DNA of 16,693 bases from Promethearchaeota archaeon (GCA_019894975.1 JAGXNO010000061.1:1-16693), one strand, 5' to 3'. Counted from the first letter of the stretch, positions 162 through 16,693 are shown. The notes: generated by a model from the letters alone, not told the origin. Made by a program: numbers and translations.

Positions 162-641
162 TTATTTAATTTCTGGTAATATTTCTATTTTTCCACCTGC
201 AGCTTCTACTTTCTCTACAGCTTTTTTAGAGGCTTTTTTAACAGTAATATTGATTTTCTTGTTAATTTCTCCACGACCTAGTATTTTTTGGATATTAATA
301 TCGCTCATATTAATGCTGTAGGTAGTTCCTGATTTGGAAGCTTTATTATTTAAAACTAATGAATCAATTTTATTATCCAAATCCTTAACATTAAGAGCAT
401 TTACTTGATAAATACGAGTAACATCTTGTGGTCTTTTAAATCCTTTTTTACCCATATCCCAATCCGGATCAGGAAACCCTAACTCTTTTTGTTTTAGGTA
501 ATAACTTTTTTTACTCTTTTTCCATCCAGTTGTTTTTCCCCTTCCTGCGCGTTGCCCTGATTTTCTATGCTGACCTACTTTACCGTAGCCATGAGTTCTC
601 TCACCTCTCATTTTTCTTACTTTTTTAGCATGATTTCTCAT
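162..641 (-). CDS. rpl15: 50S ribosomal protein uL15
   Basis: KKVRKMRGERTHGYG...HRKSGQRAGRG, KILGRG, AVEKVEAAGG motifs; AGGTGA SD upstream; operon position. Confidence 0.97.
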   Translation of the reverse strand: MRNHAKKVRKMRGERTHGYGKVGQHRKSGQRAGRGKTTGWKKSKKSYYLKQKELGFPDPDWDMGKKGFKRPQDVTRIYQVNALNVKDLDNKIDSLVLNNKASKSGTTYSINMSDINIQKILGRGEINKKINITVKKASKKAVEKVEAAGGKIEILPEIK

Positions 642-661
642 TTAATTAGGTCACCTTCTTC

Positions 662-1186
662 TTATAACATTTTATAAATTAAATCATTGATATAGATACC
701 GACATAACCTAACGTACCACCTTCAGTATAATGCTTTTTTATGGTACCTCGATATCCCTTTCTTGGGGGATGTAAACGGAATACTGGTTTGATTTTATAA
801 ACATCATTTTCCCGATATTGCTTCTCTCCACTAATTAATGCTTTTGAAAGGTCATTAAAAGTTTTAAAACCTGTTAATTTTTTCAAATACTCTTCTGTGA
901 GTGGTTTGTTTCCTTCTACTCTTCCTCTTACCCTTAATAATCTAATCAAAGTTTTTTCATCAATTTCCCCAAATGATATATAATCTTTGCATTTTGTAAG
1001 CATTCCTTTATAGCTCTTTGTCCCCCAGATGAGAACTCCGTGATTTACTTTATGCAATCTAAGCATTTTAAGAGTATCAAGAATTTTTCGCTTCATCCCT
1101 GGAGCCCCTCTAATGCGAAGTGCAAAGTAAAGCTTCGGAACAAATTCTGCTTCCTTTGATTTGATTTTCTTTTTTGCTATTGCCAT
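662..1186 (-). CDS. rpl30: 50S ribosomal protein uL30 (long archaeal form); start revised to ATG 1186 (alternative 1192)
   Basis: ALRIRG, TLKMLRLHKVNHGV, PVFRLHPPRKG, INDLIYKML; the ORF-track start at 1234 overlaps uS5, and GAGTGG precedes the ATG at 1186. Confidence 0.95.
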   Translation of the reverse strand: MAIAKKKIKSKEAEFVPKLYFALRIRGAPGMKRKILDTLKMLRLHKVNHGVLIWGTKSYKGMLTKCKDYISFGEIDEKTLIRLLRVRGRVEGNKPLTEEYLKKLTGFKTFNDLSKALISGEKQYRENDVYKIKPVFRLHPPRKGYRGTIKKHYTEGGTLGYVGIYINDLIYKML

Positions 1187-1205
1187 ATTCATTCCACTCG
1201 TATTC

Positions 1206-1820
1206 TTATATATTAAAATTATATTTATGAGCATTTTTTATTGCATCATATGTTGCTTTAACAAGATTTTCACTCGTTCGGGTGTCACCAAAAGTCTTAC
1301 TCCACACATCTTCAACACCGCATAATCTTAATACTTGTTTTACTTTATCAGCACATGCTAATCCTACTCCAACAGGCGCGGGGATAAGTTGAATCCGAAC
1401 GGAGCCACATTTCCCATTTATTTTAAAAGGAACGCTGTGAGTCCCCCCACATCCACATTCTTTACTTCCACAACCTCGAAGTACAGGCACAATAGAAAGT
1501 TTAGCTTTATCAATAGCTTTCCTTATTGCTGGACCCACCTCTTTCGATTTTCCCATTCCAATACCGATAAAACCATCCGTTCCTACGATTACCACTGCTT
1601 TAAATCTACTGCGTTGGCCACTAGCAGTCATTTGTTGAACCATAGAAATATTTATAACGTCCTCTTTGACTTGTGGGAGTAATGTATTAATAATTTCTTT
1701 TTCTTTCACAACTAAATTATTTTGATAGATTTTGTCTAAAGTGATTAATCCACTTTTTACAAGTTCACCCAATTTTGTTTTTGGGATCCATTCTGCTTCC
1801 ATATCTCTTAGTCTACTCAT
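1206..1820 (-). CDS. rps5: 30S ribosomal protein uS5; start likely ATG 1820
   Basis: WIPKTKLG, GQRSRFKAVVIVG, RGCGSKECGCG..HSVPFK, LIPAPVGVG motifs. Confidence 0.97.
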   Translation of the reverse strand: MSRLRDMEAEWIPKTKLGELVKSGLITLDKIYQNNLVVKEKEIINTLLPQVKEDVINISMVQQMTASGQRSRFKAVVIVGTDGFIGIGMGKSKEVGPAIRKAIDKAKLSIVPVLRGCGSKECGCGGTHSVPFKINGKCGSVRIQLIPAPVGVGLACADKVKQVLRLCGVEDVWSKTFGDTRTSENLVKATYDAIKNAHKYNFNI

Positions 1821-1834
1821 CTTGATCACGTAAT

Positions 1835-2428
1835 TTACGCATTATTTTCTATATTTTTAATTGAATCTGAAAAAATCTGACTAATCTTTTGTGGATTAAT
1901 TTTATTTTTCTTGATATAACCAGAAAAGATCTGCTCATAATTTTCTGGTTCTTCTGACTTTAATTTTTTCGCATAATTTTCAATATGGGTACCCTTGATT
2001 CTTTCCTCTAAACTTTCAGGAAAAAACTCTTCATGATAAGGTACCTGTAAACCCGCATCTATAATTCCTTTGCATGCGGCTAGTACACGGTTTTTATGGT
2101 AAAAAATACCAAGATCAAATATTGCTTCTTGGATATTATTCTTTTTTGCTCTTGATCCTACTAAATAACCAGTTAAGTAAGATGCTGGAATATTTCCTGT
2201 ATTAGCAGTCCATCCATACTTTGAAGCTAGTTCTTTGGAAAAGGCAGATATCATAATTTTATCCCCTCCTCTTTTAGATTGGATTATCTGAACTCTTGTA
2301 TGGTTATTAGATACTCTAATTACGACTCTTAACTTCCTTGATTTCAATAGTTTTATTCTTTTGTGATAATTAGTTTTACCTTCAAATCGTCTTCGTACAG
2401 GTCTTCTATATCTAGGTCCGTGTGGCAT
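1835..2428 (-). CDS. rpl18: 50S ribosomal protein uL18
   Basis: HGPRYRRPVRRRFEGKTNYHKR, NTGNIPASYLTG, KGIIDAGL motifs. Confidence 0.97.
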   Translation of the reverse strand: MPHGPRYRRPVRRRFEGKTNYHKRIKLLKSRKLRVVIRVSNNHTRVQIIQSKRGGDKIMISAFSKELASKYGWTANTGNIPASYLTGYLVGSRAKKNNIQEAIFDLGIFYHKNRVLAACKGIIDAGLQVPYHEEFFPESLEERIKGTHIENYAKKLKSEEPENYEQIFSGYIKKNKINPQKISQIFSDSIKNIENNA

Positions 2429-2430
2429 TT

Positions 2431-2886
2431 TTATCTTCCTCTTCTTATCAATTCCTTTTCTTTTATAAATCGATTTAATTGAGCAACACTGGTGAACATT
2501 CCACCTTTAGCATTTTTATATAGTTTTCGATAATTAGCTGCAGTTATTTGCTTTCTATCTCTTAACTTTTTCAGTTCTCTTCTTATTGGACGAATTCTCT
2601 TTATCCACTTTTTCTTTTTTGGTGATCTTGCATGCTTCGTTCCTTTTCTCTTTCCTAAACCCCTGCCTCTTCCTTTTCTCTTCCTCTCATGGTTAACTTT
2701 TTTCCTTTGGTTCGAAATTCCCTGTTTATATTTTTTCTGAATTATTCCCTGTTTTATTAAATTACGGATATCTTCACGTGTGATAGCTAAAGAGATATCT
2801 TCGATTAAATATGGATCAAAATAAACTCTATTCTTTCCGCACTTGAGAATCTCAGCAGCCATTCTTTTTTGTGGTTTTAAATTCAT
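2431..2886 (-). CDS. rpl19e: 50S ribosomal protein eL19
   Basis: LKPQKRMAAEILKCGKNRV, GKRKGTKHAR, YRKLYKNAKGG motifs. Confidence 0.97.
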   Translation of the reverse strand: MNLKPQKRMAAEILKCGKNRVYFDPYLIEDISLAITREDIRNLIKQGIIQKKYKQGISNQRKKVNHERKRKGRGRGLGKRKGTKHARSPKKKKWIKRIRPIRRELKKLRDRKQITAANYRKLYKNAKGGMFTSVAQLNRFIKEKELIRRGR

Positions 2887-2916
2887 TTTAATTATTCCTC
2901 TCTACTCTTCATTCCT

Positions 2917-3405
2917 TTAATCAATAGAATCTTCTAATTCATCGATATCAATAAAATCTTCACCTTCTAAATCCGCAATAGGAGCTTCTGCCATCTGTTC
3001 TAGTAATTCAATTTCTTTGTGTGAAATCCCAAGATTCAATATTTTAAATCCCCTTTTTTGACAGTAATCTGTTAGAGTAATTCGCTTTTTCACCCCTAAT
3101 TTTCCAGAAATTTTAAGAGCATGCTTATTTTTATTTAATTTTTTTAAATCATCCAATGTAGTAATTCTTACCTCTTTATACCCAGAGGGGTGTAAACCTC
3201 TAACCTTTTTAGGACCTCTATATCCTATAGTTGGAGATTTAACACCTGATTTCTTTTTCTTTCGAGTTTTTGAATCTATACCTCTAGCTTTTCTCCAAGA
3301 ATCCTTAACTCTTTTATATCTCCAGGATTCAACTCGCCTAAATGAGGGTCTTTTCTTGTTCATATTTTTCCTAAGTTCCATAAGTCTTTTATCTCGAGCC
3401 ATCAT
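2917..3405 (-). CDS. rpl32e: 50S ribosomal protein eL32 with acidic C-terminal extension
   Basis: KKRPSFRRVESWRYKR..SWRKARGIDSK, GYRGPKKVRGLHPSG motifs. Confidence 0.97.
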   Translation of the reverse strand: MMARDKRLMELRKNMNKKRPSFRRVESWRYKRVKDSWRKARGIDSKTRKKKKSGVKSPTIGYRGPKKVRGLHPSGYKEVRITTLDDLKKLNKNKHALKISGKLGVKKRITLTDYCQKRGFKILNLGISHKEIELLEQMAEAPIADLEGEDFIDIDELEDSID

Positions 3406-3417
3406 AAAAACCTCATT

Positions 3418-3996
3418 TTATATAATTTCCCAAAAAATCTCTTCTCCTAGTTGTTTTCTATACAAGTAGACTCCATCTTGAAATACTCTAGGATCCTTTT
3501 TTCTTATTCGACAAGCTCTTTTAACATTAGCAGCGCTTTGCCCGAGAGCTTCTTTATCTGGACCGATAAAATAAACATCATCCCCTTCTACTTCCACTTT
3601 TACATTATTTGGAATTTTAGCTTTCCTCGGTGCTCTTTCTCCTAAGAAGTTTTCAACAAGTAAGGTTTTATTTTTCTCATCCACCCTTACACTACACGGG
3701 AAATGAGAATAAGCAATCTTTGAGATGTATTTATAATTATTTTGAACTCCTATTATTAGATTATTGATAATACTCATTATTGTTTTTACTAATGCTAAGG
3801 TTCCGCTTTTAGGAAAGTTAGTAGAAAAAATAACCTTATTTCCTTCTATCGCAACTTTAATACCTCTGATATGAGAAAAATCTTTTGTAATATCTCCCTC
3901 AGGGCCTTTTACTCTAATATGATGTCCTCCTTCTAATGATAGCTTAACTCCTTTGGGGATCTCTAATTCTTCTTTAAAGAACGCGATTTTTACCAT
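3418..3996 (-). CDS. rpl6: 50S ribosomal protein uL6
   Basis: VKGPEG, YSHFP, ENFLGERAPR, KDPRVFQDGVY motifs; GAGGT SD. Confidence 0.97.
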   Translation of the reverse strand: MVKIAFFKEELEIPKGVKLSLEGGHHIRVKGPEGDITKDFSHIRGIKVAIEGNKVIFSTNFPKSGTLALVKTIMSIINNLIIGVQNNYKYISKIAYSHFPCSVRVDEKNKTLLVENFLGERAPRKAKIPNNVKVEVEGDDVYFIGPDKEALGQSAANVKRACRIRKKDPRVFQDGVYLYRKQLGEEIFWEII

Positions 3997-4019
3997 TTTT
4001 TAATTACCTCATAATTATG

Positions 4020-4403
4020 TTAATAGATATAACATAAAGCGTGTCCTCCAATTTGATTATCTTCTGCTTCTTTCATTGTCATTATTCCTTGATTTGTCGT
4101 CATTATTATTAAACCTAAACCAGGAGCAGGTAATAATCGTCTTTCTAAAAGATCAAACTGATTAGTTTTATAATTTAATCTAATTAAACCAGAACATTCA
4201 TTAATTTTACCCTGTAATGCTACTTTAAACTTACCTTGACGTCCGTCGTCATATCTTTCAAACTCTCCAATATAGGCATGTCTTTGGAAGATACGGAGAA
4301 TTTGTTGTATTTCTTTTGAAGCAGGACTTATTATCACTTCTTTTTTACGGGCTCTTTCAGCATTCTTAAGAGCACAACATGCATCTGCGAGTGAGTTTAC
4401 CAT
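4020..4403 (-). CDS. rps8: 30S ribosomal protein uS8; start likely ATG 4403
   Basis: LKNAE, YIGEFE..DDGRQGKFKV.L.GKINEC, LPAPGLG..IMTTNQG, IGG..LCYIY; the GTG at 4412 lies inside the SD (GAGGATGTGA). Confidence 0.96.
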   Translation of the reverse strand: MVNSLADACCALKNAERARKKEVIISPASKEIQQILRIFQRHAYIGEFERYDDGRQGKFKVALQGKINECSGLIRLNYKTNQFDLLERRLLPAPGLGLIIMTTNQGIMTMKEAEDNQIGGHALCYIY

Positions 4404-4438
4404 ATTTTTCACATCCTCATTTTGTTTTTCTATTTTTC

Positions 4439-4588
4439 TTATTCATACCTTTTAAATCCAATATTTTGCCCTATTTCATAAAAACAACGTCTACAAATGT
4501 ACAAACCATATCTTCTAATTATGCCTCTATGAGTATGACATCGTCTACATTCTCTCTGTCCTTTACCATAACGCTTGCCTTGTGGAAT
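4439..4588 (-). CDS. rps14: 30S ribosomal protein uS14 (zinc-binding, 49 aa), not in ORF track; apparent ATT start
   Basis: Hand translation (M)[48 protein letters not shown]: two CxxC pairs, canonical position between uL5 and uS8; AGGTGA SD at 4600-4595. Confidence 0.95.
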
Positions 4589-4609
4589 ATTTTTTCACCT
4601 TTAACTTCA

Positions 4610-5206
4610 TTAAATATATTCTAAATCTAATTTTTTTACAACTCCAACTCCAAAATTTTGCTTTAAAAAATATTGGGCTTCTGCACGTGATACATAATGA
4701 TGTCTTGGAATTTTTGTTCTTCTTTTTCTTCTATATTTCACTCTCATTCCAGGTCTAGTAATCCTTCCACATATATCCATCCCCCACAAACCTATACTTG
4801 CTTCATAATCTGTTTGAGGGATTTTAATATGTTCGTCTATGCCAAATGCGAAATTTCCAAAATTATCAAAACTTTTTTGTAAGATTTTATTATTATTTAC
4901 GATTAACAATCTTTTTAATAGCCTTTCTGCATCATTACCTCTTAAAGTAATCTTACAGCCTATAGGTCGCCCTTTTCTAAGATTAAATTCTTTTACATTA
5001 ACTTTAGAAATTGTTTTAACAGGTTTCTTCCCTGTAAGTTGTTCCAATACTGTAACTGCTTTTTCTAATTCTTCTCCACCACCCCCAACCCCTATATTTA
5101 AAACTATTTTTTCTAAGAATGGTTTTTTCATGGGATTTTTCCAATCTTCGTCATATTCTTTTAATTGGGCGCTTGAAGCTTTTTTTTTCTTAGATGTGGC
5201 TGACAT
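4610..5206 (-). CDS. rpl5: 50S ribosomal protein uL5
   Basis: NPMKKPFLEKIVLNIGVG, PIGCKITLRG, SFDNFGNFAFGIDEHI, RPGMRVKYRR. Confidence 0.97.
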   Translation of the reverse strand: MSATSKKKKASSAQLKEYDEDWKNPMKKPFLEKIVLNIGVGGGGEELEKAVTVLEQLTGKKPVKTISKVNVKEFNLRKGRPIGCKITLRGNDAERLLKRLLIVNNNKILQKSFDNFGNFAFGIDEHIKIPQTDYEASIGLWGMDICGRITRPGMRVKYRRKRRTKIPRHHYVSRAEAQYFLKQNFGVGVVKKLDLEYI

Positions 5207-5228
5207 TTTTTTATCCTCTTAATATATA

Positions 5229-5984
5229 TTAATTATCTATGGTAGGTAAAACAATTTCAGATTGATCTTCACCAATAATAAATGTATAATCATATAATGT
5301 TTCTGTATGACTCTCATTATGCTGGATTGAGACTGTACTTGCTTTCGGACCAAATCTTTTCAAAATATTAATAATCTTTCCTATTTGTCCGATATTTTTC
5401 CCAGACATAATAATTGCTAAATTATTTTCCTTAAAGTGTAATACTTTCAATATTTCTTGTTCTGGAATAGACATTTTTAAAACATCCATATGTTTATAAA
5501 CGTCTTCTTTAGGATTTCTTGGATCATTTACCCGTATTAAAATATTTCTCCCATCATGTAAATTTAGTTGAATATGACCACCTTTTACATTAGTTTTATT
5601 GGTTATCCTACATAACTTAAACCTACTTGCCTCTTCACTAATCTCATGTAAAATTAAACCATAATGGGAATCGGGTAATACTCGATAATATTTATTCATT
5701 TTCTCTATTGATAGAACATCCATCAATCCAACAGGAAAACCTGTATCTCTAACTACTTTTCCATCAACTTTAAAATATCCTAAACCAATTAATTTCTTTG
5801 CTTCCCTATGATTATCCACAACTTCTAATAAATCTCTTACGATATGCAAGAGTGGTAGACAAAATCTACTCGGATGAGGACCAGGAGAAGATTTGATGAA
5901 AAATTTTCCATGTTTCCTCTTGATTTGTAAAAATGCGGGTGTATTAAGTCTCTTTAGAGTCTTTTGGCCTCCATGTCTAGTCAT
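5229..5984 (-). CDS. rps4e: 30S ribosomal protein eS4
   Basis: SPGPH, VDGKVVRDTGFPVGLMDV, KLCRI.NK..VKGG.IQLNLHDGRN; overlaps the uL24 stop by 8 nt. Confidence 0.97.
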   Translation of the reverse strand: MTRHGGQKTLKRLNTPAFLQIKRKHGKFFIKSSPGPHPSRFCLPLLHIVRDLLEVVDNHREAKKLIGLGYFKVDGKVVRDTGFPVGLMDVLSIEKMNKYYRVLPDSHYGLILHEISEEASRFKLCRITNKTNVKGGHIQLNLHDGRNILIRVNDPRNPKEDVYKHMDVLKMSIPEQEILKVLHFKENNLAIIMSGKNIGQIGKIINILKRFGPKASTVSIQHNESHTETLYDYTFIIGEDQSEIVLPTIDN

Positions 5985-6411
5985 ATTTATCTTCCTCTTT
6001 TTCTTTCTTTGGTCCTTTTAATTCTTCGTCATAAAATCCATATAAGGCTTTTCTTTCTATCATTTGAGCTCGCCAAGGATCTAATTTCTTTTCCTTGGCA
6101 AACTTAGTTATAAGTAAATTTGATACATGTATGGCAGGATGAAATTGTGTCCCATCTGATTTTTCGAATTGAGCTTCCTTTATTTTGCATCTCATGTTTT
6201 TGGTAATCTCCAAAACTTCTCCTTCGAAATCTTTGAACTCACCTTTTGTAATTCTAACGCTATCCCCTACTCTAACGGGCAGTTTCTTTATCCCATATTC
6301 GTCCCGAAGAAAGTCTGCCACTCTTGTACTAAACAATTTCGACCGTTGATGGTTTTTGTAATTATAAAGTGCTTTTCTTTGTTTGCTTGGTTGTTTTGAT
6401 TTTACTTTCAT
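5977..6411 (-). CDS. rpl24: 50S ribosomal protein uL24
   Basis: SKQPSKQRKALYN, LPVRVGDSVRITKGEFK (KOW), IHVSNLLITK. Confidence 0.96.
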   Translation of the reverse strand: MKVKSKQPSKQRKALYNYKNHQRSKLFSTRVADFLRDEYGIKKLPVRVGDSVRITKGEFKDFEGEVLEITKNMRCKIKEAQFEKSDGTQFHPAIHVSNLLITKFAKEKKLDPWRAQMIERKALYGFYDEELKGPKKEKEEDKYD

Positions 6412-6434
6412 CTTTAGCTCCTTTTCCTTTATTA

Positions 6435-6860
6435 TTAAATTATTACCGATGAAATTGATGCTAATCTTGGGAACAATTCAGCCGCTTCTCGAGCGATAGG
6501 TCCAGATATTTGAGTACCTTTCGGTTCTCCTTCATTCGTCACTATAACTCCTGCATTATCTTCAAAACGTAAACGAGTGCCATCCAATCGGCGAACAATC
6601 ATTTTTTGTCTAACAATTACTGCCTTTAGAATATTTCCTCGCATCTCAGGTTTTCCCTTTTTTACTGTAACAGTACAAATACTACCAAGTGTAGCTTTGG
6701 GTAATCTTCTTTGTCTTCCTTTATAATGGTCTACATTGATGATTTCGGCTATTTTTGCCCCAGAATTATCCGCAATCTGGATTCTTGAGCCATTTTGCAG
6801 TCCATAACTCGTCCTGTGTCTCGACATCCGTTTTGCGCCCATTTTACGCCTTGTGCCCAT
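6435..6860 (-). CDS. rpl14: 50S ribosomal protein uL14
   Basis: ADNSGAK, VKKGKPEMR, RFEDNAGVIV...GEPKGTQI.GPIAREAAE. Confidence 0.98.
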   Translation of the reverse strand: MGTRRKMGAKRMSRHRTSYGLQNGSRIQIADNSGAKIAEIINVDHYKGRQRRLPKATLGSICTVTVKKGKPEMRGNILKAVIVRQKMIVRRLDGTRLRFEDNAGVIVTNEGEPKGTQISGPIAREAAELFPRLASISSVII

Positions 6861-7214
6861 TTAAACCCCTCCGCTTGAGATTTTTCCTAATACAATAAAT
6901 GCTTTTGTTTTTGAAATTTTTCGAGATTCTCCGACCCGAATTAGGTCCCCAATTTCTATCTCTTGAGTTAAACATTCTGGTAAATGACATGCAAGTCGCG
7001 TATTACGACGTTCATATCTTTGATACTTCTTGACAAATTGAACATAATCTCTTTTAATAATAGCTGTGTTTTTAGACTTCATACTCACAATAATTCCTTG
7101 TGTAATCTTTCCCCTAATTCTTGTCTCTCCATGAAAGGGACATGATTCATCATGGCAGTCTTCAGCCTTAGTTTTGGGGGGTACTACACCAGGGATTCCA
7201 ATATTTCTACTCAT
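6861..7214 (-). CDS. rps17: 30S ribosomal protein uS17
   Basis: CHDESCPFHG..RIRG, KKYQRYERR, GESRKISKTKAF; ATGA overlap with the rnp1 stop. Confidence 0.97.
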   Translation of the reverse strand: MSRNIGIPGVVPPKTKAEDCHDESCPFHGETRIRGKITQGIIVSMKSKNTAIIKRDYVQFVKKYQRYERRNTRLACHLPECLTQEIEIGDLIRVGESRKISKTKAFIVLGKISSGGV

Positions 7215-7525
7215 TTTTTAGACCATCTCTTCTTTTTTAAACTTCTTAATCTATTCACGGGAAAACCTACAATTTTTTTCCCTTGGACTTCTAAATAATA
7301 ATCTTCTCCATTTTCTGTATTGATTGGTACTTTAAACCTAAATACATAATCTTTTTTAATATATTTTTTAACTTTACTTTCTTTTTCTGTAATTAACATA
7401 TTTCTTGTATCATCAATTATAATTCCAATATCCATAAATTCAGTATCCTTTTTTCTTGACGTAAGTTTCGCATAAGCCTTTATTCCAATTAAGTCATGAT
7501 AAATTAAATATTTTGGATTTATCAC
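7211..7525 (-). CDS. rnp1: Ribonuclease P protein component 1 (Rpp29/POP4)
   Basis: LIYHDLIG, GIIIDDTRNML, VQGKKIVGFPVNRL; conserved position between uL29 and uS17; GTG start overlapping the uL29 stop (GTGA). Confidence 0.9.
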   Translation of the reverse strand: MINPKYLIYHDLIGIKAYAKLTSRKKDTEFMDIGIIIDDTRNMLITEKESKVKKYIKKDYVFRFKVPINTENGEDYYLEVQGKKIVGFPVNRLRSLKKKRWSKK

Positions 7526-7725
7526 CGTTGTTCCTCGTTATATACTGTTAAAATTCGAGCAATCTGCTTTCTTAAAATCTTTGCTTTTCCAGGATTATCA
7601 GCGATTCCCCCACCTGTCTGGTTTGAATATAACATCATTAATTCTTCCCGTAAATTCAATAGAGCTCTTTCTCTTTCTCTTTCATCCATTTCTCGTATTG
7701 CGTTTGCTGTTAATATATCTCCCAT
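7522..7725 (-). CDS. rpl29: 50S ribosomal protein uL29
   Basis: IREM...LREELM, NPGKAKILRKQIARILTV. Confidence 0.95.
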   Translation of the reverse strand: MGDILTANAIREMDERERERALLNLREELMMLYSNQTGGGIADNPGKAKILRKQIARILTVYNEEQR

Positions 7726-7756
7726 TTATTATAACACCCTATTTCTCATATTGATT

Positions 7757-8542
7757 TTATTTTTCTTCTTCTTTTACCTCTTCTTCTTCTGGAGCTAATG
7801 AAATTTCAGATATCGCTTCCTCATCTACTTCATCAATTATTTCTTTTTCCTCTTCGATTACTCCAGATGTTTCTTCTTCTATCATATATTCAACTTTTGT
7901 CTTGGCTATTTTTGATTCTGCTTCCTTTTGAGCTTTAGTTAGAAGTTCATATTTTAATTTTACCTCATCACCCTTCTTGGTATCTGAGTGCTGGATTTTT
8001 ACAACTACTCCCAAAGTACCAGATTTTTGAATACATTGTGCTACTCCCTTATCGACCCCCACTTGTGAGGGATATCCACTTTTTGTCATTATTCCAGCTC
8101 GAAATATTTGCGTTCTGGCCCTTTGACTCGTAACCTTACCCGAGACCCGGATTTCAGCACCAAGAGCTCCTCCTGAATCCATGATTTTTCTAAGGATATA
8201 ATAACCTGCTCTTCTGTAATGACGACCTCTATCTAAACTGTATGCCAAACGTTCTGCCATAATTTGCGCATTAAGATCGGGATTTTGAACCTCTTCAACC
8301 TCGATCTGGGGCATTTCTAAGCTAAATTTTTCCTGAAGTACATCTGTAATCTCTTGGATACGCTTTCCACCTTTTCCAATTACTAAGCCAGGCCGACTTG
8401 TTCTTAAAGTAATCCTAACTCCCAATGGTGTCTTTTGGACATCAACCCCTGCAAATCCTGCTCGAACTAACTCTGATCGCAAATATTCATTTATTTGCAT
8501 CAATTTTATACCCTGCTCAATAAAGTTTTTCACTAGGGGCAA
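7757..8542 (-). CDS. rps3: 30S ribosomal protein uS3 (TTG start), acidic C-tail
   Basis: KH motif RPGLVIGKGGKRI, LNAQIMAERLA..LDRG.HYRRA; GGTGA SD 5 nt before TTG. Confidence 0.97.
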   Translation of the reverse strand: MPLVKNFIEQGIKLMQINEYLRSELVRAGFAGVDVQKTPLGVRITLRTSRPGLVIGKGGKRIQEITDVLQEKFSLEMPQIEVEEVQNPDLNAQIMAERLAYSLDRGRHYRRAGYYILRKIMDSGGALGAEIRVSGKVTSQRARTQIFRAGIMTKSGYPSQVGVDKGVAQCIQKSGTLGVVVKIQHSDTKKGDEVKLKYELLTKAQKEAESKIAKTKVEYMIEEETSGVIEEEKEIIDEVDEEAISEISLAPEEEEVKEEEK

Positions 8543-8622
8543 TCAGATCACCAAGTAAATGCGTCTCCTCGCAATTTTATTTATCTTCATAATTATATCT
8601 TTATATTTTAATATTTAATTCC

Positions 8623-9102
8623 CTAACTTGGAAATTCATAAATAACTAATTCTACATGAGTGAGATACTTAAATTTTGCCGTACTACGGCCTCGGGCTCG
8701 TTCAATATATCTTTTTATAATTCTTCCCCGATGGGCGGCAGCATGAATAATTCTACAGCTTTCAATATCCAATCCTTTATACTCTCCATTAGCTTCCACT
8801 GAAGTGAGAATTTCATAAATTCGAGCTGCAGTTTTTTGAGGAAATTTTCCAGCATACCACTTAAACTGTTTTAAATCCTTCCGATGAGGGGCTTTTTTCT
8901 TATATCTTCTAAAAGGGACTGATTGTTTTAATTGGATAACATTTTCGAGAAATTCTTTGGCTCGATCAACTCTCATCCCTTTTAATACAGCACAAATCTC
9001 CCGTGCGTGTTTTGGTTTAATTCTTAAATCTCTACCTGATGCTTTTGCAAGTCTTTCAGAATCATATTTTTGTTCTGTAAATGAATAACCCCAGTTAGGC
9101 AT
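8623..9102 (-). CDS. rpl22: 50S ribosomal protein uL22
   Basis: AKASGRDLRIKPKHAREIC, VPFRRY, GKFPQK, RARGR...THVELV. Confidence 0.97.
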   Translation of the reverse strand: MPNWGYSFTEQKYDSERLAKASGRDLRIKPKHAREICAVLKGMRVDRAKEFLENVIQLKQSVPFRRYKKKAPHRKDLKQFKWYAGKFPQKTAARIYEILTSVEANGEYKGLDIESCRIIHAAAHRGRIIKRYIERARGRSTAKFKYLTHVELVIYEFPS

Positions 9103-9135
9103 AATTTTTCATCTCTTTAATCTTATTATCATAAT

Positions 9136-9669
9136 TTACTTTAATGGTACATATTTTGAACTTCTTGTGGCTCCAATACCTGGTGAACCGTGAGAAACAC
9201 GCTTCCTTGTTAAGGAGAATTCCCCAAGATAATGACCAATCATTTCTGGTTTAATATCAACTACTTCAAAATTCCTTCCGTTATAGACACCAATTTTTAA
9301 TCCAACCATTTCCGGAAAAATTATCATATCTCTGATATGTGTTCGGGTTAAAAGATCTTTTCCGCGTTTTTTGGCACGGAAAGCCCTTCTAAGTCTTTCA
9401 AGTAATTTTCTTTGCCTAGGAGGGAGTCCTCGCTTCACGGATCGCCTTGCTCTAGCTGGTAATAATTGTATAAACTGATCCATATTCATTTTCTTAAGTT
9501 CTTCTAGTGTATATCCTCTATAATGAAATCTTAATCTATCAAGTTCTTTCTGTGCATCTAATTCTTCTTCATCTTCTTCTTCTTCGACTTCTTCAATAAT
9601 TTCTTCAGAAGGTTCTTCCTCTTCTAATTCTTCTTCCGGGTTCTCATTGATATCTTCATTCGGAGCCAT
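9136..9669 (-). CDS. rps19: 30S ribosomal protein uS19 with ~45-aa highly acidic N-terminal extension
   Basis: [62 protein letters not shown]. Confidence 0.97.
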
Positions 9670-12244: not shown

Positions 12245-13510
12245 ATGGAAGAATTTAGGGTTAATGATTATATTATGTTGAAGTTGGAGGGTCAGGAGAC
12301 TTTCGTTTATATTCAGGAAGTGAAGTTTATCCAATGTAAGTACTTGTTGTTAACTATTCCTGAAGCAAATATCAACTATTTTGCTGAAATCAAGTCAATT
12401 GATGAAGCTGCAGATCTCCTTGATAAATCCCTTGAGCCCGAACCTGATTCGCAGCACCAACTGCAACGAAATGATACAATTCCTCCTGAAGTCGAATTCT
12501 GGGGACACTGCTCAAACCTACAAGCATGGACGGAAATGAACTACGATACTAGGCTTCTTCACAGCAATATCGCATTCCCTTTATTAAAAAAACTCACAGA
12601 CGTAGGAGATCCAAAAGCAAAGAAGGTATTTAAAGACGAGATTGGGAAAAAAATAAGTGGAACTCATATCTCACCAATTTTGTTTCTTGTAGCGGAAGGA
12701 TATCTGGATTATTTGACAGAGGAAGAGATAATCAGTTGCTTATCATCCAATGATTTTAGTCTGTTTAAATCTGCTTACAATGCATATAGAAATTCAGGTA
12801 GCTTGGATTTTGAGGATTTTTCAAAGGTAGATGAATTACATCATATGCTGGCGAAATATATGATTAGACCTCTTGAAGACATGTTAATAAAAGCATTTAA
12901 GCAGAATAATTTTAAAGGTTTTGAGTTATTAATGAGAATGATGGGTCCTTTAGAAGACTCAGACTTATGCTACATCGTAAAGAATAGGAAACTCAAGTTC
13001 ATTAAAAATTTAGTTAATATATTTGTAAATAATGAAGTTGATTTTTTTGAAGTAAGTTATCGAGTATTTGAATTGATTGATAAATTTTCATCATTTAAGA
13101 TTGAGAATCAGTTGTATAAAATTATTCAAGAAGAAAATCCTAAAGCAATTGAGACTGCAATAGATATAGGTCTTTTTCAAAATATCGAATATAAGAAATT
13201 AGAGGAAATAGTGATAAATTCTTTTGAGCCCCTCCTCTTTAGCCTAATCGCTATTGATGAATCTAGTGATTATCAAGATGGGTATCTGTTCTCAGTAGAG
13301 AAAATTAAGGAAATCCTCTTCGATTATGCTAGTGAAAACTACTCTTTAGTATCTTCTCAATTAAAAAGAATTTTTACAAAAAGTATTAAAAACAATTACT
13401 TAAGGGGATTATATTATTTTTTCGATAGTGAATCACCCTTAGGTAATACTATCAAAGAGAACGACTATGACTTCTTTATCACTATTCAGAGGTCTCAATC
13501 TCCTCTTTAG
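12245..13510 (+). CDS. Lokiarchaeal expanded-family protein (N-terminal EFWGHCSNLQAW domain) with a helical, non-LRR C-terminus
   Basis: EFRVNDYIMLKLE..FIQCKYLLL..SIDEAAD..EFWGHCSNLQAW..YDTRLLHSNIAFPLLKKL..GDPKAKKVFKDEI; recognised from memory as a domain frequently paralogous in Lokiarchaeia. Confidence 0.7.
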   Translation: MEEFRVNDYIMLKLEGQETFVYIQEVKFIQCKYLLLTIPEANINYFAEIKSIDEAADLLDKSLEPEPDSQHQLQRNDTIPPEVEFWGHCSNLQAWTEMNYDTRLLHSNIAFPLLKKLTDVGDPKAKKVFKDEIGKKISGTHISPILFLVAEGYLDYLTEEEIISCLSSNDFSLFKSAYNAYRNSGSLDFEDFSKVDELHHMLAKYMIRPLEDMLIKAFKQNNFKGFELLMRMMGPLEDSDLCYIVKNRKLKFIKNLVNIFVNNEVDFFEVSYRVFELIDKFSSFKIENQLYKIIQEENPKAIETAIDIGLFQNIEYKKLEEIVINSFEPLLFSLIAIDESSDYQDGYLFSVEKIKEILFDYASENYSLVSSQLKRIFTKSIKNNYLRGLYYFFDSESPLGNTIKENDYDFFITIQRSQSPL

Positions 13511-13814
13511 AATCTTAATGATCTCATTAAAATTTACTTCGAATTTGTTTTTTTCTTAACATCATGAACTTTATAAAGAAACAATTTTGTTATTACTTAT
13601 TCTTCGGTAATGTTATAATTGTTACTATGGTTTTCTTCTATTGTAATGCAAGACTTTGATAAGTTAACAATTTTTGTAGGTAACCTTAAATAAACGAAAT
13701 AAAATATTATATTTAGCGATTTAAGATTGTTATTAATTCAGCAATGTATTCACATTTATTTAATGTGGTTTTTATTGAATAATATTCTAAAAATTTAATT
13801 TGGTGAATTTCAAT

Positions 13815-15109
13815 TTGACTTCAGAAATAGTAATTATGAATAGAGAAGCAATAGCTTTAGCTGCTGATAGCGCTGCAAGTTACTCTGAGAGTGATGGGAG
13901 AAAAATATTTCAGTCTGCAAATAAAATATTCACATTATCGAAATATAGACCCGTAGGAATAATGATATATGGTAGCGCAACTCTTATGAGAGTTTACTGG
14001 GAAACAGTAATAAAAGTATATAGAACAAAGTTAGGTAAAAAAAACTTTAAGACTTTAAAAGGATTCGCTGATGATTTTATTAATTTTATTAAAAATAACT
14101 TTGCACTCTTTCCTGAATCAGAACGGACTTTATTTGTTGAGAGTTGTATTTATAGCTATTTTAAAAAGATCAGAGATGATATTAATAAAGCAATAGAAGA
14201 AGAATTTGAGGACGGTAAAAAAAAAAACTTAGCGAGATTTTAAAATTAGTTTCCACTAAAATTAATGAAGATTATGATATATGGAAAAAAGGTAATAAAA
14301 TACCTGATATAAATACAGCAATATTACAAAAATTGGAATCTAAAATCTCTTCTAAAATTGAAGAATATAAATTGGAGCTTTTTGAAGATTTGCCTTTAAA
14401 CCAGCAACTATCTCAAAAACTTAATGATATTGCTTTATTGCTTTTTTCAAGATGTCCTGATGAAATTTTTCAATCTCACTTATCAGGATTAGTAATTGCG
14501 GGATTTGGCCAAGAAGATTTTTTCCCTCAAATGTATGCTTATTCTATTGTTGGATTGGCTTATGAACATGTAGTTTATGAGGTTAAACAGATAGAAAAAA
14601 TTGATTTTGATAGTAGAGCTACTATTATTCCATTTGCTCAAAGTGAAATGGTACATACTTTTATGTCAGGAATAGATCCCTTTTTTAACGAAAATATCGA
14701 AATTTTTATATCAGAAGTAATAAATGAATATCCTAAGCTTATAATTGAAAATTTACCCAATTTAGATCAAAAGGAAAAAAAAAAATTAGAAAATAAATAT
14801 AAAAATATTGGAAAAAAAGAATTTAAAAAGATTGTGGATAAGTTGGAATCAATAAAAACAAAGTTTTTTGTTGATCCTATAATGAAAGTTGTAGGAATGC
14901 TTCCGAAAGATGAACTTGCAGCTATGGCAGAATCTCTAGTAAACCTAACCTCGTTTAAAAGAAAAGTATCTATGCAGGAAGAAACTGTTGGCGGTCCTAT
15001 AGATGTCGCACTTATTTCTAAGGGAGAAGGTTTTATTTGGATTAAAAGAAAGCATTACTTTAAACCCGAGTTGAATCCACAATTTTTCGCAAATTATTAT
15101 AGGGATTAA
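13815..15109 (+). CDS. Proteasome-beta/Ntn-hydrolase-like protein (~431 aa if joined), interrupted by a -1 frameshift at A11 (14217-14227); intact-by-recoding versus pseudogene unresolved
   Basis: GGTGA SD (13802-13806) then TTG ACT gives Thr1 after Met removal; ALAAD17S, NK36IF, VGIMIYG and C-terminal ETVGGPIDVALISKGEG match the beta-subunit pattern; the two track ORFs join across the A-run. Confidence 0.7.
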
Positions 15110-15122
15110 AGGGAGGGATAAA

Positions 15123-15302
15123 ATGGAGGAAAAAAAATTGGAGAAAGGAGAAATTTTTAATTCATTTATAGAATACGAGAAAAAGTTTTTTCCTAAACTT
15201 CATAAAAAAAAAATTGATAAAAAAATTGATGAAAAAAATCATCGTTTTGGAGATAATTTAGCAAAAGATTTTCTTGAAAACGTACGAGAAGAGGTAAAAT
15301 GA
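15123..15302 (+). CDS. Small hypothetical protein (59 aa), not in ORF track
   Basis: MEEKKLEKGEIFNSFIEYEKKFFPKLHKKKIDKKIDEKNHRFGDNLAKDFLENVREEVK*; strong GGGAGG SD; starts 13 nt after the upstream stop. Confidence 0.7.
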   Translation: MEEKKLEKGEIFNSFIEYEKKFFPKLHKKKIDKKIDEKNHRFGDNLAKDFLENVREEVK

Positions 15303-15337
15303 ATCAATTTTAGCAAATCTTTTATTTTTAGCAAATT

Positions 15338-15619: not shown

Positions 15620-15817
15620 ATGTCCTTTGATATTAAACTAGATTTAGATGCTTGTACCGGTTGTGGTACCTGCTACGAAGTATGCCCTTCTGAATGCTTT
15701 GGCGAACCCGAGGGTGGCAAAGTAAACGTTATAGAAGAAAACAGAGAAGATTGCGTAGGTTGTAGGGCATGTGAAACTCAATGTCCTGACGAGGCAATAG
15801 AAATCATTGAGAATTAG
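15620..15817 (+). CDS. 2x[4Fe-4S] ferredoxin
   Basis: CTGCGTCYEVCP and CVGCRACETQCP (two CxxCxxCxxxCP motifs); AGGAG SD at 15605-15609. Confidence 0.93.
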   Translation: MSFDIKLDLDACTGCGTCYEVCPSECFGEPEGGKVNVIEENREDCVGCRACETQCPDEAIEIIEN

Positions 15818-15866: not shown

Positions 15867-16693
15867 TTAAAAATCAGCACATAGAAACATAATAATTTCT
15901 TTTACAAATTTCTTAATATCTTTAAATCGAATAGATTCATTAACACCATGAGTATTAGAACCAGCACTAACTACCCCGCGAAGAATAATTTCTTGAGTAT
16001 TAAGAATTTGTGCAACAAACCCTACATCAAAAGTCATAGACATTCCCATCATCTGAATCCTTTCTTCAGGTATATTGTGTACTAATTGTATAACCTTTTT
16101 AACTCGTTGAATTTCTGGACTGTTGATATCTACTTTCAGAGGGGGGTAAGAGTAGTCAAACGAAATTTTTACATCTAATGCTTTACTTTTTGCTTTACCC
16201 TTTTCAATAGCATCAATTATTTCTTGTTTCACATCCTTTATATTTTCATCTGGTATTACTCGTCTGTTGATTGTGAGAACGCAATGATCAGGGATAATAT
16301 TTGATTTTTCACCAGCTTTAATAATATCTAGGTTAAATAAAGGTGTCATGTTGCGTTTTTCTTTATGGAAAACCAGGAATATCTTTACATTGACGTAATT
16401 CCACTTTTTTTTTAAGCTTCCTTAGTTCCACTAAAATCGGGATCATTTCTTCTAAAGCATTAACACCCAAAAGACTAAGACCAGAATGTGAACTTCTTCC
16501 AATAGTTGTAACTTCAACATCCAAGTTTCCTGCTGTTCCCATTAATATAATAGGTTCTATGGAATAATCCAGTGAAAAAATAGTTCCTTTTACATAATCT
16601 TTCTCTGTTAAATAGCGTATTCCTGGATAAAAACCAATTTCTTCATCAGTACAATTAAGGATTCGAATGTTATATTTAGGCATAAGATTTAAT
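15867..16693 (-). pseudogene. M20 family metallopeptidase/deacylase (ArgE/DapE-like), 5'-partial and frameshifted near 16350-16370
   Basis: CTDEEIG, GRSSHSG, GVNALE, NIIPDHC...INRRVIP, HGVNE motifs are split over two ORFs in different frames; the frame remains open past 16683 to the window edge. Confidence 0.75.

Follow-up and report, generated by a model that had tools for sequence, protein, structure and literature searches.

What kind of enzyme is encoded by an archaeal gene that begins like a mature proteasome beta subunit, is interrupted part of the way along, and is followed at once by a small open reading frame (ORF)? We address this question for a two-gene cassette on a contig of 16,693 nt from a Promethearchaeota archaeon (GCA_019894975.1, JAGXNO010000061.1:1-16693), the whole of which is referred to here as the window. 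The archaeal host is confirmed by the intact cluster of archaeal ribosomal-protein genes in the window (L18e/L15, L30, L18/L5e, L6, S4e, S3, and others; Table 1). After this cluster come genes for a mannose-6-phosphate-isomerase-like protein and a PfkB kinase. The 421-aa ORF upstream of the cassette has no match in Pfam or NCBIfam. There are seven to nine paralogues of it per genome in five genomes of the same genus, and these share only their N-terminal ~170 residues and vary in their C-termini; by sequence, it looks like a lineage-specific expanded family. Downstream lies a gene for a 65-aa 2x[4Fe-4S] ferredoxin, which is unlinked to the cassette in other loci. Farther downstream, two ORFs that both match the M20 dimerisation domain are the pieces of a split M20-type peptidase gene, and the region that is open in both of its frames contains an A9 run and an A5 run.

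Table 1. Coordinates of the cassette and of flanking features, counted from the first nucleotide of the window.
Feature	Position	Strand	Remarks
Ribosomal-protein cluster	162-9669	-	archaeal; intact
421-aa ORF	12245-13510	+	upstream of the cassette
SD-like GGTGA of the enzyme	13801-13805	+	9 nt 5' of the TTG start; read directly from the sequence
PMI-4 gene, 5' fragment	13815-14243	+	TTG start; 137 in-frame residues, then five out-of-frame residues (NLARF) and TAA
Frame 0 stop codon	14241-14243	+	end of the 5' fragment
A11 homopolymer	14217-14227	+	site of the 1-nt deficit; -1 frame change
Segment open in both frames	14219-14243	+	the only such segment; contains the A11 run
PMI-4 gene, 3' fragment	14219-15109	+	-1 frame, open throughout; 296 codons
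SD GGGAGGG of the small ORF	15111-15117	+	strong; 5 nt before ATG; read directly from the sequence
59-aa partner ORF	15123-15302	+	13 nt after the enzyme stop codon
T-rich tract TTTTATTTTT	15320-15329	+	18 nt 3' of the small ORF; possible archaeal oligo-T terminator
Ferredoxin gene	15620-15817	+	65 aa
M20-type peptidase gene	15867-16683	-	split into 16683-16363 and 16349-15867, different frames
A9 run in the M20-type gene	16405-16413		in the region open in both frames

The most plausible start of the enzyme is a TTG codon followed by ACT, which places a threonine (Thr1) next to the initiator Met. An existing annotation from one source, a 142-aa product on the window contig, matches this start, and in alignments of intact relatives the homologues open with MTAEIAIMNKEA. 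Counted from Thr1, the enzyme has Asp17 in ALAADS, Lys36 in ANKIF, and Gly47 in RPVGIM, and the 5' fragment carries all four residues together. The preliminary description had reported the TTG-ACT start with its SD, the N-terminal Thr, Asp17, Lys36, and the lack of a propeptide. All of these are present in the sequence, and Thr directly follows the initiator Met in the homologues as well as in the window. The oxyanion-hole Gly was placed in IMIYG in that description; it is instead Gly47 of RPVGIM, where the numbering is identical to that of the proteasome.

ORF calls on the plus strand give 13800/13815-14243 and (14219)14333-15109, which lie in different frames. The two halves align collinearly with intact homologues of 425-446 aa, so the two ORFs represent one broken gene rather than two genes, and in the alignment the relatives read through the break position without interruption. 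With A12 instead of A11, the locus would encode a single product of 431 aa. The 3' fragment contains the remainder of a first helical insertion, the second half of the beta-sheet, a second insertion, helix H4, and the C-terminal strands, and the enzyme ends in the window as ETVGGPIDVALISKGEG. The initial view of the split gene as one protein of ~431 aa thus holds, but the frameshift is not simply something to be corrected, since the same break occurs in three assemblies. A bulge-helix-bulge mini-intron was considered as the cause of the break and ruled out: the homologues align across the junction without extra residues, and only 1 nt is missing.

By sequence, the enzyme is a member of a family that has already been catalogued, PMI-4 ("Proteasome homolog with Multiple Insertions, variant 4"; Fuchs, Alva & Lupas, Bioinformatics 2021, PMC8665760). 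Similarity to the named PMI-4 representative HDY66466.1 (428 aa; P0067 in our set) is significant, collinear, and full length: the N half is 55% identical over residues 2-128 (E 3e-48) and the C half is 49% identical over residues 140-427 (E 7e-96). The alignment of both halves overturns the earlier suggestion of an undescribed family. The family had not, however, already been described functionally: the 2021 study was purely computational and listed PMI-4 without an assigned function. In the literature we found no later functional study of PMI-4 or of proteasome-like defence proteins, and none tying the family to defence. The study counted 501 PMI-4 sequences at 90% redundancy, from bacteria, Euryarchaeota, and phages, and stated that there were "no genomic contexts ... 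suggestive of a specific function" for them. It placed the insertions after H1/H2 and between H3/H4, and its authors inferred that insertions at these ring-contact and pore positions may prevent ring assembly or stacking (PMC8665760). The window enzyme agrees with PMI-4 as published in Thr1/Asp17/Lys/Gly47, in the lack of a propeptide, and in both insertion sites. It differs in its host, an Asgard archaeon, whereas the published taxon table marks Euryarchaeota and not other archaea for PMI-4 (PMC8665760), and in being frameshifted.

The family is also larger than the published count. Our family profile search recovered 5,968 clusters at 50% identity, compared with the 501 published sequences. 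The C-terminal fragment has more than 5,500 homologues of 425-446 aa in bacteria and archaea, all labelled hypothetical and none with a Pfam domain. Searches of Pfam, NCBIfam, and PADLOC gave nothing significant for both enzyme halves, the intact homologues, or the small ORF; with PADLOC-DB 2.0 (2023), there were only noise-level matches for three family members and none for the partner. A PDB search with a single enzyme sequence returned nothing, and with the family profile the C-terminal GGPIDVA strand weakly matched the Thermoplasma beta subunit (E 0.04). Profile positions 84-163, which fall in insertion 1 (about 14065-14300 in the window), matched the N-terminal helical repeats of Cullin-3/Cullin-4B (E about 1e-3 to 1e-2). 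The Cullin match is marginal and may be compositional, and the 50 best structural matches to the full model described below include no cullin.

Since the frameshift prevents folding of the window protein as a whole, the structure was modelled on an intact relative (P0007) that is 60% identical to the window enzyme over the N-terminal fragment and 55% over the C-terminal fragment. AlphaFold2 with a 34-sequence alignment gave a beta core with a pLDDT of 68; 146 diverse representatives were used for the final model, which has a pLDDT of 94.6 and a pTM of 0.90. With Foldseek, the top of the list for this model consists of 20S beta subunits together with Anbu and alpha subunits, at probability about 1.0. 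We also compared the model with 48,161 chains using VIA-align. The 20S beta subunits scored highest, with Z of 17-18 and rmsd of 3.1-3.7 A over 176-187 of about 200 residues (best-quoted match, Z 17.8, rmsd 3.6 A, 186 residues), followed by Anbu (16.3), HslV (12.9), BPH (12.8), connectase (11.5), and other Ntn hydrolases (8-11). In these superpositions the Thr at model residue 2 falls on residue 1 of the mature chains.

The modelled relative has the proteasome-like beta-sandwich core with H1-H4 (H1 at model residues 62-73, H2 at 81-94). A five-helix bundle of ~110 aa (101-209) follows H1/H2, and a helical hairpin of ~75 aa (289-362) lies between H3 and H4, exactly the PMI-4 positions of the 2021 paper. 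The preliminary description had anticipated a helical insertion; it is present, but the model of the relative has two insertions rather than one long middle. Thr2, Asp18, and Lys37 (numbering that includes Met) are at least 90% conserved in the 146 representatives, and together with Gly48 they are invariant in the 34 closer ones. Because the 146 representatives are only 40-51% identical to the reference, this level of conservation exceeds what chance would give. The sequence thus has the Thr1/Asp17/Lys33/Gly47 set of active proteasome-like Ntn hydrolases, with Lys36 in the place of Lys33. Overall, the model of the relative and the sequence support a proteasome-beta-type Ntn fold with a conserved Thr1 catalytic set, in line with the initial reading of both fold and residues.

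The 20S beta subunits, HslV, Anbu, and BPH share the fold and active-site layout of the PMI-4 model, with its Thr on Thr1. PMI-4 differs from all of them in being twice the size, with two helical insertions, and in having a mobile, patchy distribution instead of vertical inheritance. It also differs from the 20S and HslUV systems in having no linked alpha subunit or AAA+ gene. No gene for an alpha subunit, HslU, or another AAA+ protein is conserved in the 80 PMI-4 loci that we compared (80 species, drawn from at least 465 matching species), and none occurs in the window, as had been noted from the sequence.

What is linked to the enzyme gene is the small ORF. In 78 of the 80 loci, from bacteria and archaea alike, the enzyme gene is followed directly by a homologous ORF of 48-74 aa; the two genes overlap in 60 of the 80, by a median of 14 nt. 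The tight linkage and strong SD of the 59-aa ORF, already remarked in the preliminary description, are therefore accompanied by co-conservation across the family. The tight spacing here and the overlap in most relatives suggest translational coupling. The family of small ORFs has a basic N-terminus, a motif with an invariant Pro (S-x3-E-[FY]-E-K-x-[FY]-F-P), a variable linker, and a C-terminal helix motif (G-x2-LA-x-[ED]-x-L). The two motifs are present in the window partner as NSFIEYEKKFFP and GDNLAKDFLENV, and the linker between them is Lys-rich. Small ORFs of this family are annotated as genes in one phage and one satellite. The partner has no match in Pfam, NCBIfam, PADLOC, or Atlas, and none in the PDB by profile. 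The linkage of partner and enzyme is new relative to Fuchs, Alva & Lupas 2021, who do not mention a downstream ~60-aa partner.

Transcription of the pair might end at the tract TTTTATTTTT, which may be an archaeal oligo-T terminator. A scan for bacterial-type terminators found none at the cassette; its sigma-70 and intrinsic-terminator models are bacterial and uninformative for an archaeal host.

Apart from the partner, no neighbour is conserved, which makes the cassette a self-contained two-gene unit: no other gene occurs in more than 7 of the 80 loci, the most frequent being an Eco57I-type restriction-modification methylase (at most 7 of 80). Among the nearest neighbours at other loci are restriction-modification methyltransferases, type IIG and type III enzymes, SoFic, and mad2. 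Defence genes were looked up by a PADLOC scan of the 137 nearest neighbours, which gives counts per family without a background rate. The association of defence genes with the cassette is modest, and many neighbours are housekeeping genes.

The pair is widespread and patchy. It occurs in at least 465 species of bacteria and archaea, on 10 plasmids, and in 13 of 50,697 phage records. One of these, a lambdoid Providencia phage, has the pair (431 and 58 aa) between Q/Dam and holin, and in a Streptococcus satellite prophage it forms the last two genes, at the end far from the integrase. Among relatives of the window's host, none of 40 genomes (24 of the same genus and 16 of the same order) carries the cassette. 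Horizontal acquisition, proposed in the preliminary description, is supported by this distribution. The GC content of the cassette is 26-27%, compared with about 31-33% elsewhere in the window.

Is the gene in this archaeon really broken? One explanation is that the missing nucleotide is an artefact of sequencing or assembly and that the gene is intact in the organism. The break does sit within a long homopolymer, the source is a metagenome-assembled genome of 175 contigs with 8.55% contamination, and a second gene 2 kb off is also split close to an A9 run. We consider this explanation improbable. Identical truncated products of 135 and 258 aa occur, with the 59-aa ORF, on three contigs that come from different sources and are 16.7 to 210 kb in length, although the three contigs that share the frameshift may go back to the same reads and a broken gene in a metagenome-assembled genome can be an error of assembly. 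In this genome's assembly there are ~207 A runs of nine or more inside long open frames, and 203 of them are intact, including nine of ten A11 runs; only four are candidate frame breaks. Every ribosomal-protein gene of the contig is whole. Given the same break on three contigs, the few A-run breaks genome-wide, and the whole ribosomal-protein genes, a real mutation is likelier than an artefact, and this copy of the enzyme gene is probably truly broken.

A different explanation is that the gene is alive despite the break. Full-length enzyme might be made via -1 ribosomal frameshifting on the heptamer A_AAA_AAC, with which the A11 run ends in frame 0, or via transcriptional slippage, and its expression would be low or switchable in a manner resembling phase variation. 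A_AAA_AAC is a classic -1 slippery heptamer, -1 frameshifting occurs at A_AAA_AAT in Sulfolobus fucA1, and A runs of nine or more lead to slippage of RNA polymerase. At the window locus, a -1 slip at A_AAA_AAC brings back the reading of the homologues, ...KKK(N)LSEIL. No stops otherwise interrupt the two enzyme halves or the partner ORF, and another broken family member (L060) is likewise shifted within an A9 run. The nearest relatives (76-82% identical), however, are intact and lack the A run at the break site, so recoding is not conserved among them. A search for a frameshift stimulator 3' of A11 found no convincing structure (MFE -9.8 kcal/mol, z -1.5, first stem 21 nt away). Given the lack of a stimulatory structure and the intact close relatives without the run, conserved recoding at the A11 site is unlikely, and we regard the proposal of a live gene as quite improbable. 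Most likely, the cassette here is a decaying or switched-off copy, because the enzyme gene has lost 1 nt in the A11 run while the partner ORF stays intact.

Other PMI-4 loci are also broken, 5 of the 80: two have a TGA at an invariant Trp, one has a TAA, one (L060) is frameshifted within an A9 run, and one is truncated. Breaks were located at L005:3831, L063:6184, L041:6127, and L060:~7040. The TGA falls exactly at the invariant Trp of VPWETIIK in two unrelated genomes, and the TAA falls at a conserved Leu in one. Of the four candidate A-run frame breaks in the genome studied here, two are on the window contig, and the split of the M20-type gene is one of these.

Addressing the role of the pair, we propose that the cassette is a horizontally acquired enzyme-partner unit that acts as a mobile conflict module (defence or addiction) and that has been inactivated here. 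We give this proposal as a whole an even chance of being right. Since there is no propeptide, the Thr1 nucleophile would be exposed as soon as the initiator Met is removed, and an enzyme born in this form would need some other control of its activity. The partner could provide that control by binding the enzyme, probably at the insertions, and acting as an inhibitor or gate. Alternatively, the partner may be a substrate that releases an active fragment once cut. On prophages, satellites, plasmids, and islands, the pair would act in phage exclusion, abortive infection, or addiction. We infer a conflict module from the mobility and patchiness of the pair, its positions in the phage and the satellite, the occasional restriction-modification neighbours, and the recurrent inactivation. 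Circumstantial points in favour of a toxin-antitoxin or abortive-infection module are the tight coupling of two genes, carriage on mobile elements, and the recurrence of inactivated alleles. Against a conflict role, no PADLOC model matches either protein, and the association with defence genes is modest.

Immune modules that pair a protease with a small partner include CapP-CapH, CalpL-CalpT, and Craspase-Csx30. Their proteases (a metallopeptidase, a Lon protease, and a caspase-like protease) have folds unrelated to PMI-4. The present pair would resemble them in logic only: in each case, a protease gene stands with that of a small protein, which the protease may cleave or which may hold it, on mobile elements or among defence genes. 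No sensor or nucleotide-signalling gene is linked to the PMI-4 pair.

The pair could instead serve cellular protein processing. The enzyme would then be a sequence-specific peptidase or a connectase-like transpeptidase, and the small protein a dedicated substrate or tag, for example one that is cut or ligated at the invariant F-P. Connectase, a monomeric proteasome homologue, is a specific ligase that recognises a short motif (PMC7980362). Like PMI-4, connectase (MJ0548/DUF2121) is an Ntn enzyme with Thr1 and helical additions. Our model matches connectase at the Z given above, the partner has one invariant Pro within its conserved motif, PMI-4 is possibly monomeric too, and its insertions may prevent ring assembly (PMC8665760). 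Connectase, however, lacks H1/H2 and carries a two-helix insertion between S3 and S4 (PMC8665760), whereas the modelled relative retains H1/H2 and has no insertion between S3 and S4. Connectase is also confined to methanogens, and no gene for a small partner accompanies it, in contrast to PMI-4. The patchy distribution (none of the 40 relatives) and the carriage on phages, satellites, and plasmids further argue against a processing role, and so do the repeatedly broken alleles, which suit a housekeeping function poorly. We therefore consider this explanation rather unlikely.

Another possible role is service to the mobile element itself: the pair would be, for example, an anti-defence protease or a regulator of lysis or lysogeny in phages, and the chromosomal copies would be remnants. 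This would fit the position in the lambdoid phage, between the antiterminator Q/Dam region and the holin, as well as the position at the end of the satellite. In such elements, however, these are also places for accessory genes from which the host profits. At most of the 80 loci no recognisable phage genes adjoin the pair, and the 13 phage records with the pair are few among those searched. An element-serving role is, in our view, very improbable.

The proposal of a conflict module can be extended from the window to the family. PMI-4 and its ~60-aa partner, with about 6,000 clusters at 50% identity in bacteria, archaea, phages, satellites, and plasmids, may constitute a very widespread uncharacterised immune or addiction system. 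In such a system a proteasome-type threonine protease or transpeptidase would act with a mini-protein that serves as a gate or as a cleavable or ligatable pro-effector. We put this forward tentatively, as something short of an even chance.

The window copy itself adds little: its Asgard host acquired it recently, and it is apparently inactivated. For the family, the consequences are broader. Since it was catalogued in 2021, PMI-4 has remained among the largest families of proteasome homologues without a known function. That it is strictly paired with a mini-protein and travels on phages, satellites, and plasmids provides a concrete and testable hypothesis of the role of the enzyme. If the enzyme is a specific ligase or peptidase, it might, like connectase, find use in biotechnology. 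If, instead, the pair acts in defence or addiction, a protease of the proteasome fold would join prokaryotic immunity, and PMI-4 would be the first proteasome-fold enzyme in defence against mobile elements.
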